Shown piece by piece: positions 13,070-23,379 of a DNA stretch of 64,000 bases. Made by a program: the position numbers and the translations under genes. The notes under the pieces are model-generated. The model was not told the DNA's origin. It saw only the letters and a list, made by a program, of their open reading frames with translations, and searched no databases. Every line of letters starts with the position of its first letter. The first letter of the stretch is position 1. This DNA comes from Gammaproteobacteria bacterium (GTDB lineage Bacteria > Pseudomonadota > Gammaproteobacteria > UBA4575), in contig OZ245760.1 in the NCBI GenBank assembly GCA_965227695.1, positions 174,619 through 238,618 of the forward strand, in the 5' to 3' direction.

Positions 13070-15973
13070 TTACTTCCTTTTGGTTTTACCACGCATCAGA
13101 ATATCTTTCAGTGAACGATTGATTCCTACCGCCTTGTGTGTCTGATAACGTAACTTGTCTTTTTTAATTTCTGACCCGGGCAGTGGTTTAATTGTCTCGA
13201 AGTTCGGCCAGACACCTATCTCACCTTTCCTGGCAGGATAGACTTTGACCTGCAAGTCATACCAGGCTGCCTGGCCCGTAATAGGATCTGAGTTTGTTAT
13301 CGGGCGTCCGGTATCACCGCACGGCAGATGCTCATTAATTATGTGATTCAGCAAAAATCCCTGATTGGATTCATTCGCGTCCGGATCAAGCCCCCATGCG
13401 CCGCGCTGTTTGCCAATCGCATTCCAGGTCCAGATCGTATGCTTTTCTGTCCCTTCCATTAACTTCACTTGCACGCGGATCCTGCCGGTTTTGGATTCGA
13501 CCCAGATCCAGGACAAATCTTCAATGCCCATATCTTCTGCCTGCTGGCGATTCATATACATATAATTTTGGGCCAGTAACTGACGCAACCAGGCATTTTG
13601 TGAATCCCAGGAGTGATACATCATCATCGGACGCTGTGTTATCGCATGAAACGGGTATTCTTCCGGTGATGTACAGCGCTGTTCGAGCGGAATAAAGTAT
13701 TCCGGCAGAGGGTCAAAGAAACGTGATGTACGATACTGATCGCGCTCATCCCTGGGCTGGGGTCCATCATATAAACCCAAACCCGCCAGACGAAATTTCT
13801 GTAATGTTTCCGAGTAAAGCTCCATGATAATCGGCTCGGACCGGTCTATGAAACCCGCCTGCTTGGCAAATTCCAGATAATCCTTGTTGGCAAAACGATA
13901 AAATCGTTCGTGCTTTGCCAGGCGATATTCAAAGAAGCATTCATTTTCTACATATCGATCCCATTGATTCGGATTAGGCTCACCACGCAGACATTTTTCA
14001 CCGTCTTCACCTCGCCAGCCGGCGAGAAAACCGATACCGGGAGTTTTTTCATAATTGACAATAAAATCTTTATAGTCTTTGTACTTGGGCGATCCGTCTT
14101 CATTAATAAAAGCGGGGAACTTAAGGCGTGACGCCATCTCTACCATCACTTCCTGCCAGGGACGAACGTCAGATGTCGGTTCCACAACAGGTGCCCTGAT
14201 GGCGTCACATACTGCATCCGGTTCGGAGATGGGTCTGTCCAGCATTGAAATAGTGTCGTAACGCTCGAGATAAGTTGTATCCGGCAAGACCAGATCTGCA
14301 AACGCAACGATCTCTGAATGAAAAGCGTCCACGACCGTCAGGAACGGCAGTTTATATTCACCGTTTTCATCTTTCTCGCGCAAAAGATCGCGGACTTTTC
14401 CAGTATTCATGGAAGAGTTCCAACTCATATTTGCCATAAAGAAAATGAGTGTATCGATTGGATAGGGATCCCCATTCACGGCATTGGTGATAACCATATG
14501 CATCAGGCCATGGTTGGCGATCGGCGCTTCCCACGAATAGGCTTTATCTATGCGCAGCGGATTACCCTCATCATCGATAACAAGGTCTTCAGGGCAGGTA
14601 GGAAATCCAAGCGGTGGACTATCCAGCGCTTCACCTGGCGCTTTTGGTTTCGCCGGCTTATTTGGCGGACATACATGCTTGGGGTAAGGAGGCTTGGCCA
14701 AATGACCGCCTGGCACATCAACGCTACCAAGAAGCACCTGCAGCAAATGAATAGCACGACAGGCCTGAAATCCGTTGGAGTGTGCCGAGATACCACGCAT
14801 CGCGTGCATCGAGACAGGACGTCCAATAAAGCTGTCATGCTTGCGACCTGCCCAATCTGTCCATTCCGTTTTTATTTCAATACTTTCTTCAAATGCCACA
14901 TGCGCCATCTCCATGGCAAGTCGCTCAATCATTTCAGCCGGCACACCACATACTTTGGTTGCATTCTCAGGCGCATACTCATCTGAAAGATAGCGTTCGG
15001 CAAGGAGAGTAAAGGCCGTTTTGACTGTAGTGCCCTCGGGGGTTTGGTATTCACCAAACAGGGCCGGTTTGATGTCCGCAAGTGTGGCATCAACAAATGT
15101 GTTCTTTTCCAGATCCCACGCCAGTGGCTTGTCCTGTTCATTGCGATATATCAGACCATCGCCCTTTTCGTAGGGAGTGTGCACCACGAGGTGAGTGGAA
15201 TTGGTATAACGAACTATATATTCCCAGTCAAAAAGGTCATGCTTCAATAAAACATGCACCATGGACAATGCCAGCATCGCGTCTGTACCCGGTTTAATCG
15301 GCACCCACTCATCTGCAATGGCCTGGTACCCGGTGCGCACCGGGTTAATTGAAACAAACTTGGCACCGCGACGCTTTAACTTTTCCAGTCCAATTTTAAT
15401 GGGATTTGATGAGTGATCCTCGGCCACCCCCCATAACATAAAATATTTAGTTCTGTCCCAATCCGGATCCCCGAATTCCCAGAAGGCATGACCTATGGTG
15501 TATAAGCCTCCGGCGGCCATATTTACCGAGCAAAATCCTCCATGCGCTGCCCAGTTCACGGTACCGAACTGCTGAGCCCAAAAGCCCGTCAATGCCTGCA
15601 TCTGGTCCCGGCCGGTAAAGAATGCCAGCTTTTTGGGATCGGTTTCACGAATTTTTTGCAGCCTCTGCGTCAGATAGTCGAGTGCGGTCTCCCAACTGAC
15701 AGGCACAAAATCACCTTCCCCGCGTTCACTACCTTCGCGACGCATCAGCGGCTGAGTAAGCTTGGCCGGTGAATTCTGCTTCATAATTCCGGCGTTGCCT
15801 TTCGCACACAGCACACCTTTATTAATCGGGTGATGCTTGTTTCCCTGAATAAAACGCACCTGGTTATCTTCTACTGTCACCTTAATACCGCAGCGACACG
15901 CACACATGTAGCAGGTAGTGTACTTGTGTTCTTGCTTACTATGATCTTCAAATTGGGGTAACTTTGATGGCAC
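13070..15973 (-). CDS. soeA: Sulfite:quinone oxidoreductase molybdopterin subunit SoeA
   Basis: N-terminal TTCYMCACRCG...LC Fe-S motif, no Tat signal (cytoplasmic); AAHGGFCSVNM, HAMRGISAHSNGF and MYHSWDSQNAWLRQ motifs characteristic of SoeA. Confidence 0.92.
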   Translation of the reverse strand: MPSKLPQFEDHSKQEHKYTTCYMCACRCGIKVTVEDNQVRFIQGNKHHPINKGVLCAKGNAGIMKQNSPAKLTQPLMRREGSERGEGDFVPVSWETALDYLTQRLQKIRETDPKKLAFFTGRDQMQALTGFWAQQFGTVNWAAHGGFCSVNMAAGGLYTIGHAFWEFGDPDWDRTKYFMLWGVAEDHSSNPIKIGLEKLKRRGAKFVSINPVRTGYQAIADEWVPIKPGTDAMLALSMVHVLLKHDLFDWEYIVRYTNSTHLVVHTPYEKGDGLIYRNEQDKPLAWDLEKNTFVDATLADIKPALFGEYQTPEGTTVKTAFTLLAERYLSDEYAPENATKVCGVPAEMIERLAMEMAHVAFEESIEIKTEWTDWAGRKHDSFIGRPVSMHAMRGISAHSNGFQACRAIHLLQVLLGSVDVPGGHLAKPPYPKHVCPPNKPAKPKAPGEALDSPPLGFPTCPEDLVIDDEGNPLRIDKAYSWEAPIANHGLMHMVITNAVNGDPYPIDTLIFFMANMSWNSSMNTGKVRDLLREKDENGEYKLPFLTVVDAFHSEIVAFADLVLPDTTYLERYDTISMLDRPISEPDAVCDAIRAPVVEPTSDVRPWQEVMVEMASRLKFPAFINEDGSPKYKDYKDFIVNYEKTPGIGFLAGWRGEDGEKCLRGEPNPNQWDRYVENECFFEYRLAKHERFYRFANKDYLEFAKQAGFIDRSEPIIMELYSETLQKFRLAGLGLYDGPQPRDERDQYRTSRFFDPLPEYFIPLEQRCTSPEEYPFHAITQRPMMMYHSWDSQNAWLRQLLAQNYMYMNRQQAEDMGIEDLSWIWVESKTGRIRVQVKLMEGTEKHTIWTWNAIGKQRGAWGLDPDANESNQGFLLNHIINEHLPCGDTGRPITNSDPITGQAAWYDLQVKVYPARKGEIGVWPNFETIKPLPGSEIKKDKLRYQTHKAVGINRSLKDILMRGKTKRK

Positions 15974-19014: not shown

Positions 19015-19563
19015 ATGTCCGAGAAAATAGTCATGCGTGTTGGAGAATCACTTGTAGCGGGTGGTCCACCGGGTACAGCGGCAGAACCAGAAGTAATCAT
19101 CGGAGAACTGGACGGACCGGTTGGCACGGCATTTGCCACCCTGCTTGGTGACCAGGTCAAGGGACATTCGCGCGTTCTTGCCATCATGAATACCGATATT
19201 CAGGTAAGGCCTTCAACCTTGATGGTGAGCAAAGTCACTGTGAAAGATGAACGTTATACCAATATTCTAATGGGTACCGTTCAGGCCGCCATTTCAAATG
19301 GTGTACTGGATGCTGTTCGCACTGGCGATATTCCCAAAGAAAAAGCCAATGATCTTGGAATAATCGTCTCAGTGTGGTTAAACCCAATGGTCGCCAAAGC
19401 CGATGATCTTGATCACAAAATCCTATTTGATATTCACCGCAAAGCAATGGCCAGCGCTATCCACAAAGCGATGAACAACGAACCGGATATAGACTGGTTA
19501 CTGGAAAACCAGGAACAAATCACACACAAATATTTTCAAATGGGTTTGGACGGCAAAATTTAA
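19015..19563 (+). CDS. fae: Formaldehyde-activating enzyme paralogue (Fae2/Fae3-like)
   Basis: VGESLV, GPVGTAFA, P.TLMVSKVTVK and G.VQAAI..GVLDAV..G.IP Fae-family motifs; AAGGAG RBS. Confidence 0.85.
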   Translation: MSEKIVMRVGESLVAGGPPGTAAEPEVIIGELDGPVGTAFATLLGDQVKGHSRVLAIMNTDIQVRPSTLMVSKVTVKDERYTNILMGTVQAAISNGVLDAVRTGDIPKEKANDLGIIVSVWLNPMVAKADDLDHKILFDIHRKAMASAIHKAMNNEPDIDWLLENQEQITHKYFQMGLDGKI

Positions 19564-20824: not shown

Positions 20825-21727
20825 ATGGTGAATTTACCGACGGTTAAACAACTGAGATACCTGGTAGCACTTGAAAAGCATTTGCATTTTGGAAAAGCTG
20901 CCGAAGCATGCTTTGTGACTCAGTCCGCTTTTAGCGTGGCAATTAAAGAGCTTGAAACGATACTCAATACCTCGCTCGTGGATCGCACCAACAGGAGTGT
21001 TGTATTTACCTCGACGGGAACGCTGGTTGCGCAACAGGCCCGCCTGGCACTTTTTGACATGGAAGGCATCCTTGACATTGCCAGGGCGAACCAGCAGCCA
21101 TTAAGTGGACCACTAAAGATGGGGGTCATACCCACGATTGCGCCTTTTTTACTGCCACGCATATTACCCGCCATACGCAAACGATACCCGAAACTCGAGT
21201 TATATCTGAAAGAAGAGCAGACGCACCATATACACCAGCTACTGCTTGATGGTGAACTTGATCTATTATTACTCGCACTTCCCGTTCACCTGACCAATAC
21301 AGAATCGATCAGTATCTTCAATGACCCTTTCAATCTTGCCTATCGCAAAGGCACCAAGCTGATTGATCCGGAGAACTTTTCTCCGAACAAGCTGAATGAA
21401 TCATCGATCCTTCTCCTCGAAGACGGCCATTGCCTGCGCGACCATGCAATGAGCGCATGTAATATTTCAAGGAAAGAAAAAATCAGTAAATTTTCTGCCA
21501 GCAGTCTATATACATTGATACAAATGGTGGACAGCGACCTCGGCGTCACCTTCGTGCCACAGATGGCGATTGACAGCGGTATACTCAAACACACCAGAGT
21601 CTCTACCTCGCCAATGAAAGATAAGTCGTATCGTGAAATTGGTCTGGCCTGGCGCAAGTCCAGTGTGAGAAAACCCGAGTTCAATCTTCTGGCAAAAATT
21701 ATATCTGATTGTATCAACCGCCAGTGA
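20825..21727 (+). CDS. oxyR: Hydrogen peroxide-sensing LysR regulator OxyR
   Basis: LysR HTH; GVIPTIAPFLLP; LLEDGHCLRDHAMSAC with both redox cysteines (C-x8-C); SLYTLIQMV. Confidence 0.88.
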   Translation: MVNLPTVKQLRYLVALEKHLHFGKAAEACFVTQSAFSVAIKELETILNTSLVDRTNRSVVFTSTGTLVAQQARLALFDMEGILDIARANQQPLSGPLKMGVIPTIAPFLLPRILPAIRKRYPKLELYLKEEQTHHIHQLLLDGELDLLLLALPVHLTNTESISIFNDPFNLAYRKGTKLIDPENFSPNKLNESSILLLEDGHCLRDHAMSACNISRKEKISKFSASSLYTLIQMVDSDLGVTFVPQMAIDSGILKHTRVSTSPMKDKSYREIGLAWRKSSVRKPEFNLLAKIISDCINRQ

Positions 21728-21770: not shown

Positions 21771-21800
21771 AAAAAAAGCCCCGCGGGGTTAGGCGGGGCT
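21771..21800 (-). terminator. Rho-independent terminator (minus strand)
   Basis: Minus strand reads AGCCCCGC-ctaacccc-GCGGGGCT followed by a T-run. Confidence 0.85.
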
Positions 21801-21852
21801 GACGGCTTAGTGTGAATCGGCTTAGTAATACGGAGGCAACAACTAAGCACAT
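21771..21852 (-). ncRNA. Candidate ~82-nt sigma54-dependent small RNA
   Basis: Bounded by a sigma54 promoter and an intrinsic terminator; 5' hairpin GCTTAGT/ACTAAGC with a CCTCC-containing loop; no RBS for a peptide. Confidence 0.55.
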
Positions 21853-21862
21853 ATATGAGCAA

Positions 21863-21878
21863 TGCAGGAGTTATGCCA
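21863..21878 (-). promoter_or_regulatory. Sigma54 (RpoN) -24/-12 promoter
   Basis: Minus strand TGGCAT-AACTC-CTGCA with GG-N10-GC spacing; AT-rich upstream region. Confidence 0.6.
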
Positions 21879-21987
21879 GCGATATATTAGCAGCCAATAC
21901 AGATAGTTAATATTTTTCGAATGAATCCCACCTATTTATTTGCACTAATCCGGCACACTTCATGCTTTAGCGTGAAGCAATACCTGA

Positions 21988-23379
21988 CTAATGAATGACA
22001 CTGATATCTTTCCAGCGACCGCGTTTAAAACGCATATAAAAGACACCGCAATACAACATCACATGAATAGTCAGTATCCACCACAGTACTAATAACTCCT
22101 CATCAAAAAATTGTACATATAAATAGCATGGCAATACCAGGCAACCAAGTGATACAAGAAAACTCATCCTCATAATAAATCTGGTATCACCCGCTCCTTC
22201 AAGCGCTCCCATAAATACCAGAAAAATGGCATCACATAAGCCAAAAAATGCAATGAATCGCAGCAATACAATAATCAACTGTTTATCCTCCTGGGTATTT
22301 CCCAGTTCGCCATATGATGAGAATGGGTGAATAAAAATAGAAGGTATCAGCAAGTATAATAATGCCAGGGTTCCGAAAAAAATAATCGCGATATGTATAC
22401 CGGACCAGGTGGCTTTTTCCGCAAGCCATGGTTTTTGCTCACCAAGACGCTGACCGACAATAACAGAAACACCGATCATCAGGCCCACCATGGGCAAAAA
22501 CGATAATGCATTTATATTAATCGCGATATTACTTATCGCAAGTTCACGTGTCCCTATTTGACCCATAAACATAAGGAAGGCAGTAAGTGAGGACATATCG
22601 ATAAACAGCCTCATCCCGTTAGGCATTCCGTAATGAATTAATCGTGTGAATAAACGATAGTTAAATTTCCAGCCGCTATAAACCTGATATAAACATTCAT
22701 GCTGTGTACGAAAAACCAACATAAGCAAAACCAGGCAACCTGAAATCACGGCGACGTTCGTTGCTATTGCAGCCCCATAAATGCCCATCACCGGAAATCC
22801 AAGCTTGCCAAATATCAGCAGATAATCAAGCGCGATGTTAATAATGGCAATTAATACATTGACCCACATCACTAGGATTGTTTTGCCCATGCCAGAGAAA
22901 AAGCTGTACAAAACATTATTCATTACCACAAAAATCGCTGAATACATCAACGTCTTAAAGTAGATAGTTTCCAGATCTTGTACTTGCTGTGAATGACCGA
23001 CAAATGCAAAGAACTCATCAGCAAAAACATAGGCAGGAATAACACACAGTAAAGAAAATAAACTAAAATAAATGCCCTGCCATATGATGGCACCAATCAT
23101 TGTTTGCTCTTTAGCACCAAAATACTGAGCGACAAAGGTATTTACATATGCGGCAGTTCCAATAAAAAAACATAGCATCGAAAAACTTGCTAACCCGGCA
23201 GGCACCGCTGCAGCAATCGATTCAGGAGAGTCCCAGGATAAAAACATACGATCGAAAAAAATCAGCAGGCTCCACGAGCCTGTGCTAAATATCAAAGGGA
23301 CCGCAATAACCAGCAATTCCCGGTAGCCGCCTTGCGCTGACCAGCGCTGCTTCAAAAAGCCTGTCATATAATTCAGCAC
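21988..23379 (-). CDS. MATE family efflux transporter
   Basis: About 12 TMs; D..FL, VAQYFGA, LDYLLIFG..GFP.MG..GAAIAT and GALEGAGDT motifs. Confidence 0.9.
   Translation of the reverse strand: MLNYMTGFLKQRWSAQGGYRELLVIAVPLIFSTGSWSLLIFFDRMFLSWDSPESIAAAVPAGLASFSMLCFFIGTAAYVNTFVAQYFGAKEQTMIGAIIWQGIYFSLFSLLCVIPAYVFADEFFAFVGHSQQVQDLETIYFKTLMYSAIFVVMNNVLYSFFSGMGKTILVMWVNVLIAIINIALDYLLIFGKLGFPVMGIYGAAIATNVAVISGCLVLLMLVFRTQHECLYQVYSGWKFNYRLFTRLIHYGMPNGMRLFIDMSSLTAFLMFMGQIGTRELAISNIAININALSFLPMVGLMIGVSVIVGQRLGEQKPWLAEKATWSGIHIAIIFFGTLALLYLLIPSIFIHPFSSYGELGNTQEDKQLIIVLLRFIAFFGLCDAIFLVFMGALEGAGDTRFIMRMSFLVSLGCLVLPCYLYVQFFDEELLVLWWILTIHVMLYCGVFYMRFKRGRWKDISVIH

Follow-up and report, generated by a model that had tools for sequence, protein, structure and literature searches.

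We found that the DNA between a MATE-family transporter gene and a converging OxyR-like regulator gene very probably holds a real, conserved sigma54 RNA gene. The reading we prefer, at a probability of roughly 0.6, is that NtrC and sigma54 activate an RNA of about 82 nt that represses translation by pairing its CCUCC core with GGAGG ribosome-binding sites. The window is the whole stretch of 64,000 nucleotides that was analysed, and G000 denotes the 2.73-Mb genome to which it belongs. On the minus strand, the promoter, the hairpin arms, the CCTCC, both copies of ACTAAGC, the hairpin at 21799-21778, the T7 run and the NtrC-like half site at 21947-21941 all lay where the earlier note had placed them (Table 1). 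The +1 at 21852 is a predicted position, derived from the usual -24/-12 spacing. Between 21600 and 22100 there was a single terminator where 0.3 were expected; a sigma70 promoter was not found in that interval.

Table 1. Positions in the window of the RNA gene, its parts and its neighbours.
Feature	Position	Strand	Remarks
sigma54 (-24/-12) promoter, TGGCAT-N5-CTGCA	21863..21878	minus	Motif read; GG and TGC invariant in 7/7 aligned orthologues; rpoN in genome
Predicted small RNA, ~82 nt	21771..21852	minus	Ends predicted from -24/-12 spacing and terminator
5' arm of hairpin 1, GCTTAGT	21842..21848	minus	Pairing kept through changes on both sides
Seed region, anti-Shine-Dalgarno-like	21827..21841	minus	CCUCC core at 21836-21832
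First ACTAAGC, nearer partner of 5' arm	21820..21826	minus	5% predicted at 37 C
Second ACTAAGC, farther partner of 5' arm	21805..21811	minus	95% predicted
Hairpin 2, terminator stem	21778..21799	minus	Conserved C-rich loop 21792-21785
U-run (T7) of intrinsic terminator, predicted Hfq-binding tail	21771..21777	minus	Hfq binding inferred; hfq in genome
NtrC-type box, 17-mer, right half good, left half weak	21941..21957	minus	Starts 79 nt before promoter
Possible second, degenerate NtrC-type box	21963..21979	minus	Two helical turns further upstream; by eye
MATE-family transporter gene, upstream, co-directional	21988..23379	minus	TIGR00797 above cut-off
OxyR-like LysR regulator gene, converging	20825..21727	plus	Below NCBIfam OxyR cut-off

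The converging gene had been named oxyR; OxyR was indeed its best NCBIfam match, but the score of 235 bits fell short of the 329-bit cut-off, so we call it OxyR-like. In several relatives (loci L002, L004, L043 and L048) a small membrane-protein gene, which we take to be YbaN/DUF454-like, stands between the RNA and the OxyR-like gene; it is absent in G000 and G010. In other MAGs the OxyR-like gene is flanked by genes that looked catalase-like on visual inspection. Elsewhere in the window lie a gene of the formaldehyde-activating enzyme family (19015-19563, above cut-off) and a molybdopterin oxidoreductase gene (13070-15973), presumably SoeA-like; together they are a hint that the host has a C1 and sulfur metabolism.

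The family was searched by BLAST, pattern and covariance model in 56 genomes (16 of genus g1, which includes G000, 15 of the sister genus g7 and 25 of nine other genera), and the region behind the MATE gene was also examined across g1. An intact unit stood behind this gene in 8 of the 16 g1 genomes (G000, G002, G006, G010, G012, G013, G014 and G015); seven of these units carried CCUCC, and the seed of G014 read GCCCCUU. G008 and G009 kept only remnants of the unit, which was absent from the region behind the MATE gene in G004, G005 and G007; G001 and G003 had no usable sequence at the locus, and a search of G011 yielded no MATE gene. At the G004 locus (L323, G004:C48) a plain terminator lies directly behind MATE with no RNA unit, G008 (L328, G008:C1:404284-405204) retains the box and a decayed promoter only and has a broken MATE gene, and G009 (L319, G009:C94) has a box remnant directly before the OxyR-like gene. 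In g7 the element occurred in 7 of 15 genomes, with promoter-linked copies in G021, G035, G063, G069 and G070 and long forms in G033, G063 and G065. The g7 copies stand beside unrelated genes and carry their own promoter, which supports the proposed layout of a stand-alone sigma54 small RNA gene. The 25 genomes from nine further genera yielded no copy, the best covariance-model locus of each genome having been inspected.

The GG and TGC of the promoter, the CCTCC and most of the terminator were invariant in all seven aligned orthologues, and the spacers diverged; CCTCC was invariant in all ten aligned members. Hairpin 1 showed pair changes from GC to CG to UA at one pair and from CG to UA at another. 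When model R2 was fitted to the seven orthologues, pairing held in 96% of cells (slid controls, 33-54%) and covariation reached 0.308 versus 0.174 when shuffled (0/500), figures from a fitted alignment that leans towards structure and from related genomes that are not independent. G000 and G012 probably share single events, and without fitting, five sequences gave only a marginal covariation signal (37-41 of 500 shuffles). The conservation that the earlier note asked for in the promoter and the hairpin was found, and the seed and the terminator were conserved as well.

Searches outside the family gave results at chance level, with limited sensitivity. Model R2 was run on 151 class genomes with only 27 candidates scored per genome; its eight matches beyond the family were plain terminators throughout, none with a sigma54 motif. 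The promoter-seed-terminator pattern, applied to 401 genomes, returned eight matches outside the family (four of them inspected) versus nine control matches, and it missed G000 itself because one of the gaps allowed in the pattern was too small. The metagenome pattern yielded 97 loci, four with a sigma54-like motif; L144, identical in sequence to G010, and L158 score as members, and L127 and L140 were left unscored. In viral contigs, none of 45 pattern matches had a sigma54 motif. Within G000, an architecture scan showed that 3 of 259 sigma54-like motifs were followed by a terminator within 170 nt; two of these three promoter-terminator units had a CCUCC-type seed, one of them being the flagged element. 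The reversed and the complemented G000 controls each gave 0/116 such units.

Given the existence of the RNA, we lean with some confidence towards Shine-Dalgarno occlusion as its mode of action. Under nitrogen limitation, phosphorylated NtrC would open the sigma54 promoter, the U-tail of the RNA would bind Hfq, and CCUCC would pair with GGAGG ribosome-binding sites and block initiation; the outcome would be a set of strongly translated proteins turned down when nitrogen is short. The predicted RNA has the class features of Hfq-dependent trans-acting small RNAs, namely its own promoter, a non-coding sequence, a U-tailed terminator and an exposed conserved seed (as predicted), and G000 encodes rpoN, hfq, ntrBC and seven strong enhancer-binding proteins. 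Among 2671 crudely called G000 genes there were 97 candidate starts with GGAGG at Shine-Dalgarno distance, some of them false internal starts, and because strong sites are so rare in the genome, even a generic CCUCC seed would have some selectivity. Precedents for Shine-Dalgarno occlusion appear in the portions compared of the reports on NfeR1, acting on ntrB (PMC10746234), and SuhB (bioRxiv 10.64898/2025.12.09.693200).

Duplex ranking in G000 revealed no target that tracks the RNA, and the seed-complement pattern, with 57 matches in five genomes, gave no tracking target among the 30 loci listed and 18 more regions. The gltD gene ranked high in G000 and had GGAGG in all 13 g1 genomes read; it was rejected as a target because g3 and g5 genomes that lack the RNA also have GGAGG there, and the g7 carriers G021 and G035 do not (site compared in 30 of 53 genomes). 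Also rejected were trxB and sucD, whose sites are not conserved (5-6 genomes), a match in the glnA coding sequence, likewise not conserved (15 genomes), and the ntrB/ntrC starts, where pairing is poor and not conserved (15 genomes). In tusA, CGGAGGU was kept in six of six carriers, the comparison being of carriers only.

That no conserved mRNA target was found would also fit a real RNA whose C-rich loops bind a protein or a G-rich sponge RNA and not the ribosome-binding sites of mRNAs. The conservation of both loops and the retention of the gene with an altered seed in G014 point the same way, and the sponge CrfA binds alpha-R8 seeds, according to the part compared of one report (PMC12559287). 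We nevertheless consider this unlikely: the invariant core is the complement of the Shine-Dalgarno sequence, a U-tail together with hfq suits base-pairing RNAs, and a search of G000 for an intergenic partner with two G-rich sites returned none except the element's own opposite strand.

Translational repression by CCUCC pairing, as we prefer it, would be tied to nitrogen by NtrC. We scored NtrC-type sites with a matrix built from 32 boxes upstream of glnA/ntrB in 15 family genomes, which are orthologous and so not independent; canonical boxes before glnA, ntrB and a porin-like gene of G000 (G000:C1:394102, 396361 and 499521) were used in it. What the earlier note described as a weak NtrC half site emerged as an NtrC-type box whose position is conserved in orthologues (up to 15.4 bits). 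The box in G000 scores 3.8 bits, compared with 18-26 for the training sites. A score of at least 2.3 bits at -81 to -76 from the promoter was found in 10 of 13 members, this threshold having been set afterwards at the weakest positive member, and in the control 1 of 235 sigma54-like motifs in G000 passed, that one being the flagged element. This fixed position of the box, so rare among the motifs of the genome at large, makes nitrogen control by NtrC likely, and we hold this sequence-based prediction with good confidence. In the long forms, three in number, the boxes sit at -78 to -80 and score 8.8-15.4 bits. A further box precedes the first by 21-22 nt in several members, the same spacing as at glnA in g7; the G000 region at 21963..21979 is not among the two best-scoring 17-mers.

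Another enhancer-binding protein could instead activate this sigma54 small RNA, in which case the signal would not be nitrogen. The genome has six further strong enhancer-binding proteins, the G000 box is weak, and G015, G069 and G070 have no NtrC-type box at the -81 to -76 spacing. We think this improbable, since the box fits the matrix built from glnA and ntrB sites and stays in place in both g1 and g7, and the paired boxes of several members repeat the arrangement at g7 glnA. The ntrC gene scored above cut-off in 52 of the 56 family genomes and therefore cannot account for the patchy occurrence of the RNA.

The predicted length of the RNA was 71-84 nt across the g1 orthologues. The fold of the 83-nt strand had z = -4.5 and none of 200 shuffles was as stable, much of this stability coming from the terminator; the values were z = -2.5 (4/200) for the 5' hairpin alone and z = -1.6 (19/200) for the 53-nt 5' part. 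The 36-aa frame, the only one from +1, was not kept in the other nine members examined, and a small protein was rejected. Of three sequencing runs listed, the one RNA run left the element uncovered; it comprises contigs only and gives no evidence either way.

At predicted equilibrium (G000, 37 C) the 5' arm is 95% paired with the second ACTAAGC and 5% with the first, which makes the 15-nt 5' hairpin loop, in which the earlier note saw CCUCC presented, a minor predicted form in G000. Exposure of the seed itself stood up, with CCUCC predicted unpaired at 0.63 in G000, 0.95-1.0 in six g1 orthologues and 1.0 in G063; the value was only 0.41-0.44 in the long forms of G021 and G035. The earlier note had further proposed that the repeat could act as a switch, which in a two-state form would cover or uncover the seed. 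Two partners of the 5' arm are present in G000 and G012, and in G012 the predicted balance stands at 87:13 at 37 C and at 31:69 at 15 C. However, the arrangement is missing from five of the seven orthologues, G000 is predicted to be 95% (37 C) to 100% (15 C) in the far-copy form, and CCUCC is predicted to be 0.60-0.99 unpaired at both temperatures alike. Local duplication of a linker motif accounts for the repeat more simply; the (C/T)TAAGC-type motif also occurs in orthologues whose 5' arm cannot pair with the linker. With both partners in only two of seven orthologues and CCUCC predicted to be mostly unpaired, we dropped the switch as very improbable.

It is barely credible that the hairpin is the MATE terminator only, with an incidental promoter and seed, for although the MATE gene is co-directional and ends ~110 nt before the sigma54 promoter with no other terminator found in between, the promoter, box and seed are conserved, the g7 copies lie beside other genes, G004 has its plain terminator without the unit, and G008 and G009 have remnants only.

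The loop of hairpin 2 is C-rich and nearly constant across g1 and g7. By contrast, most of the 11 further G000 terminators listed with a similar stem have a short or A/T-rich loop. The C-rich loop persists despite a broken U-run in G069, G070 and two of the long forms, which suggests, from sequence comparison, that hairpin 2 has a role beyond termination; the loop may be a second contact surface. G069 and G070 (L091 and L098) have the seed and C-loop hairpins followed by a CUCCUCC hairpin with its own terminator, in tandem modules of ~235-250 nt from one sigma54 promoter. In the long forms L033, L040 and L101 (G065, G063 and G033, respectively), the seed module is preceded, at a distance of ~570 nt, by an NtrC box and a sigma54 promoter; the span holds up to three conserved small ORFs (~33, 57-66 and 37 aa), two of them hydrophobic, and the U-run of the last hairpin is broken.

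A second RNA unit of ~97 nt, from sigma54 promoter to terminator, lies outside the window at G000:C1:1582084-1582210 (+), and also at L277:1585-1710, with a CUCCUCC seed between hairpin and terminator. It matched 35 of the 56 family genomes, with 94-97% identity in eight other g1 genomes, and is better conserved than the flagged element. Among 300 scored genomes, one of another family had it (G203, with two seeds), and G028 has three nearby copies. No Rfam family was found for it. Its upstream motif differs and is not NtrC-like; we take it to resemble FleQ sites. At L219 (G143:C1:431601-431721), in another family, an intergenic sigma54 motif, two CCUCC stretches and a terminator differ in sequence from the flagged RNA and were unmatched by model R1. 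Tentatively, and with more doubt than belief, we propose that a two-loop module, made up of the anti-Shine-Dalgarno hairpin and the C-rich-loop hairpin that also serves as terminator, is reused alone, in tandem and behind small ORFs and that, together with the second sigma54 RNA, two enhancer-binding proteins bring distinct signals to one pool of strong ribosome-binding sites. If this were true, the tandem reuse would be that of G069 and G070, and the reuse behind ORFs on NtrC-driven transcripts that of G033, G063 and G065.

The flagged RNA is a new family within a known class of RNA, set apart from its relatives partly by published descriptions, of which portions were compared. As the earlier note suspected in not recognising its family, no Rfam model reached threshold for the element; no family reached gathering score in the whole window, where there were weak matches only. 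The best match, RF02278 (22.8 bits against a 50-bit cut-off), came from CUCC and the terminator only, and 13 of the 14 control genomes also gave weak matches to that model at E<=10. Alpha-R8 (RF00519) scored 15.8 bits against a 41-bit cut-off and had no match at E<=1 in 13 further loci; alpha-r14 was absent among the 10 Rfam matches at E<=10. No description of the RNA was found in the literature compared, in which papers are not searchable by sequence and which also spans part of PMC9170634.

In the portions compared, the alpha-R8 RNAs (MmgR, SuhB and SisA-D) resemble the flagged RNA in their ~70-85 nt, anti-Shine-Dalgarno seed and intrinsic terminator, and alpha-R8 is Hfq-associated. MmgR is ~77 nt and NtrC-induced, with RpoD and RpoN promoter motifs listed (parts of PMC7143759 and PMC8401924). 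Unlike alpha-R8, our RNA lacks the decamer UUUCCUCCCU, having GUUGCCUCCG in G000 and AGCCUCCCU in most orthologues, and has MATE and OxyR-like neighbours where alpha-R8 is usually beside an FGase gene (PMC12559287, in part); its host is gammaproteobacterial. Class I PHA synthase was not found in the genome, so MmgR's role in PHB is unlikely to carry over.

NrsZ of Pseudomonas is a stand-alone RNA with an RpoN promoter, induced by NtrBC (PMC4253122, in part). The flagged RNA is likewise stand-alone, with a conserved RpoN promoter motif and NtrC-type box that predict such control, and the hairpin modules of NrsZ, which vary in copy number and keep their loop conserved, can be likened to it (same source, in part). 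It differs from NrsZ in its CCUCC loop, that of NrsZ being ACAGGCAG, which activates rhlA (PMC4253122, in part), and in its locus, which is not behind ntrC, whereas NrsZ, as partly described, lies behind ntrC and has at least 226 nt and three modules. NfeR1 (alpha-r14) shares an anti-Shine-Dalgarno loop on a stem of variable sequence and a link to NtrBC. Three CCUCCUCCC loops, a sigma70 promoter, repression by NtrC and independence of Hfq set NfeR1 apart (PMC10746234, in part for both comparisons) from our RNA, with its one anti-Shine-Dalgarno loop, sigma54 promoter and predicted activation by NtrC.

RF02278 and the betaproteobacterial ncS03, 05, 27 and 62 are, like the flagged RNA, short, with two hairpins and CU-rich unpaired regions, and those of ncS03/05/27/62 are predicted to cover ribosome-binding sites (both from parts of PMC5688073); the term 'sigma54' is absent from the main text of PMC5688073. 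GlnZ of enterobacteria is a comparable nitrogen-limitation RNA, Hfq-dependent and linking nitrogen and carbon metabolism, but it arises by cleavage of the glnA 3'UTR and its pairing site lies far upstream of sucA, whereas our RNA has its own promoter (both from parts of PMC9731577). Three g7 copies are in a 3'UTR-like position. NcS25 was considered and judged unrelated from a partial account (PMC10117139).

In the portions of the literature compared, we did not meet a promoter organised as in NrsZ together with a seed like that of MmgR and NfeR1. Regulation of this kind is itself already well known. If NtrC controls it as predicted, the RNA adds a new sequence family to the few RNAs placed directly under the NtrC/sigma54 response to nitrogen, and it shows a layer of NtrC/sigma54 RNA control in an uncultured gammaproteobacterial lineage.
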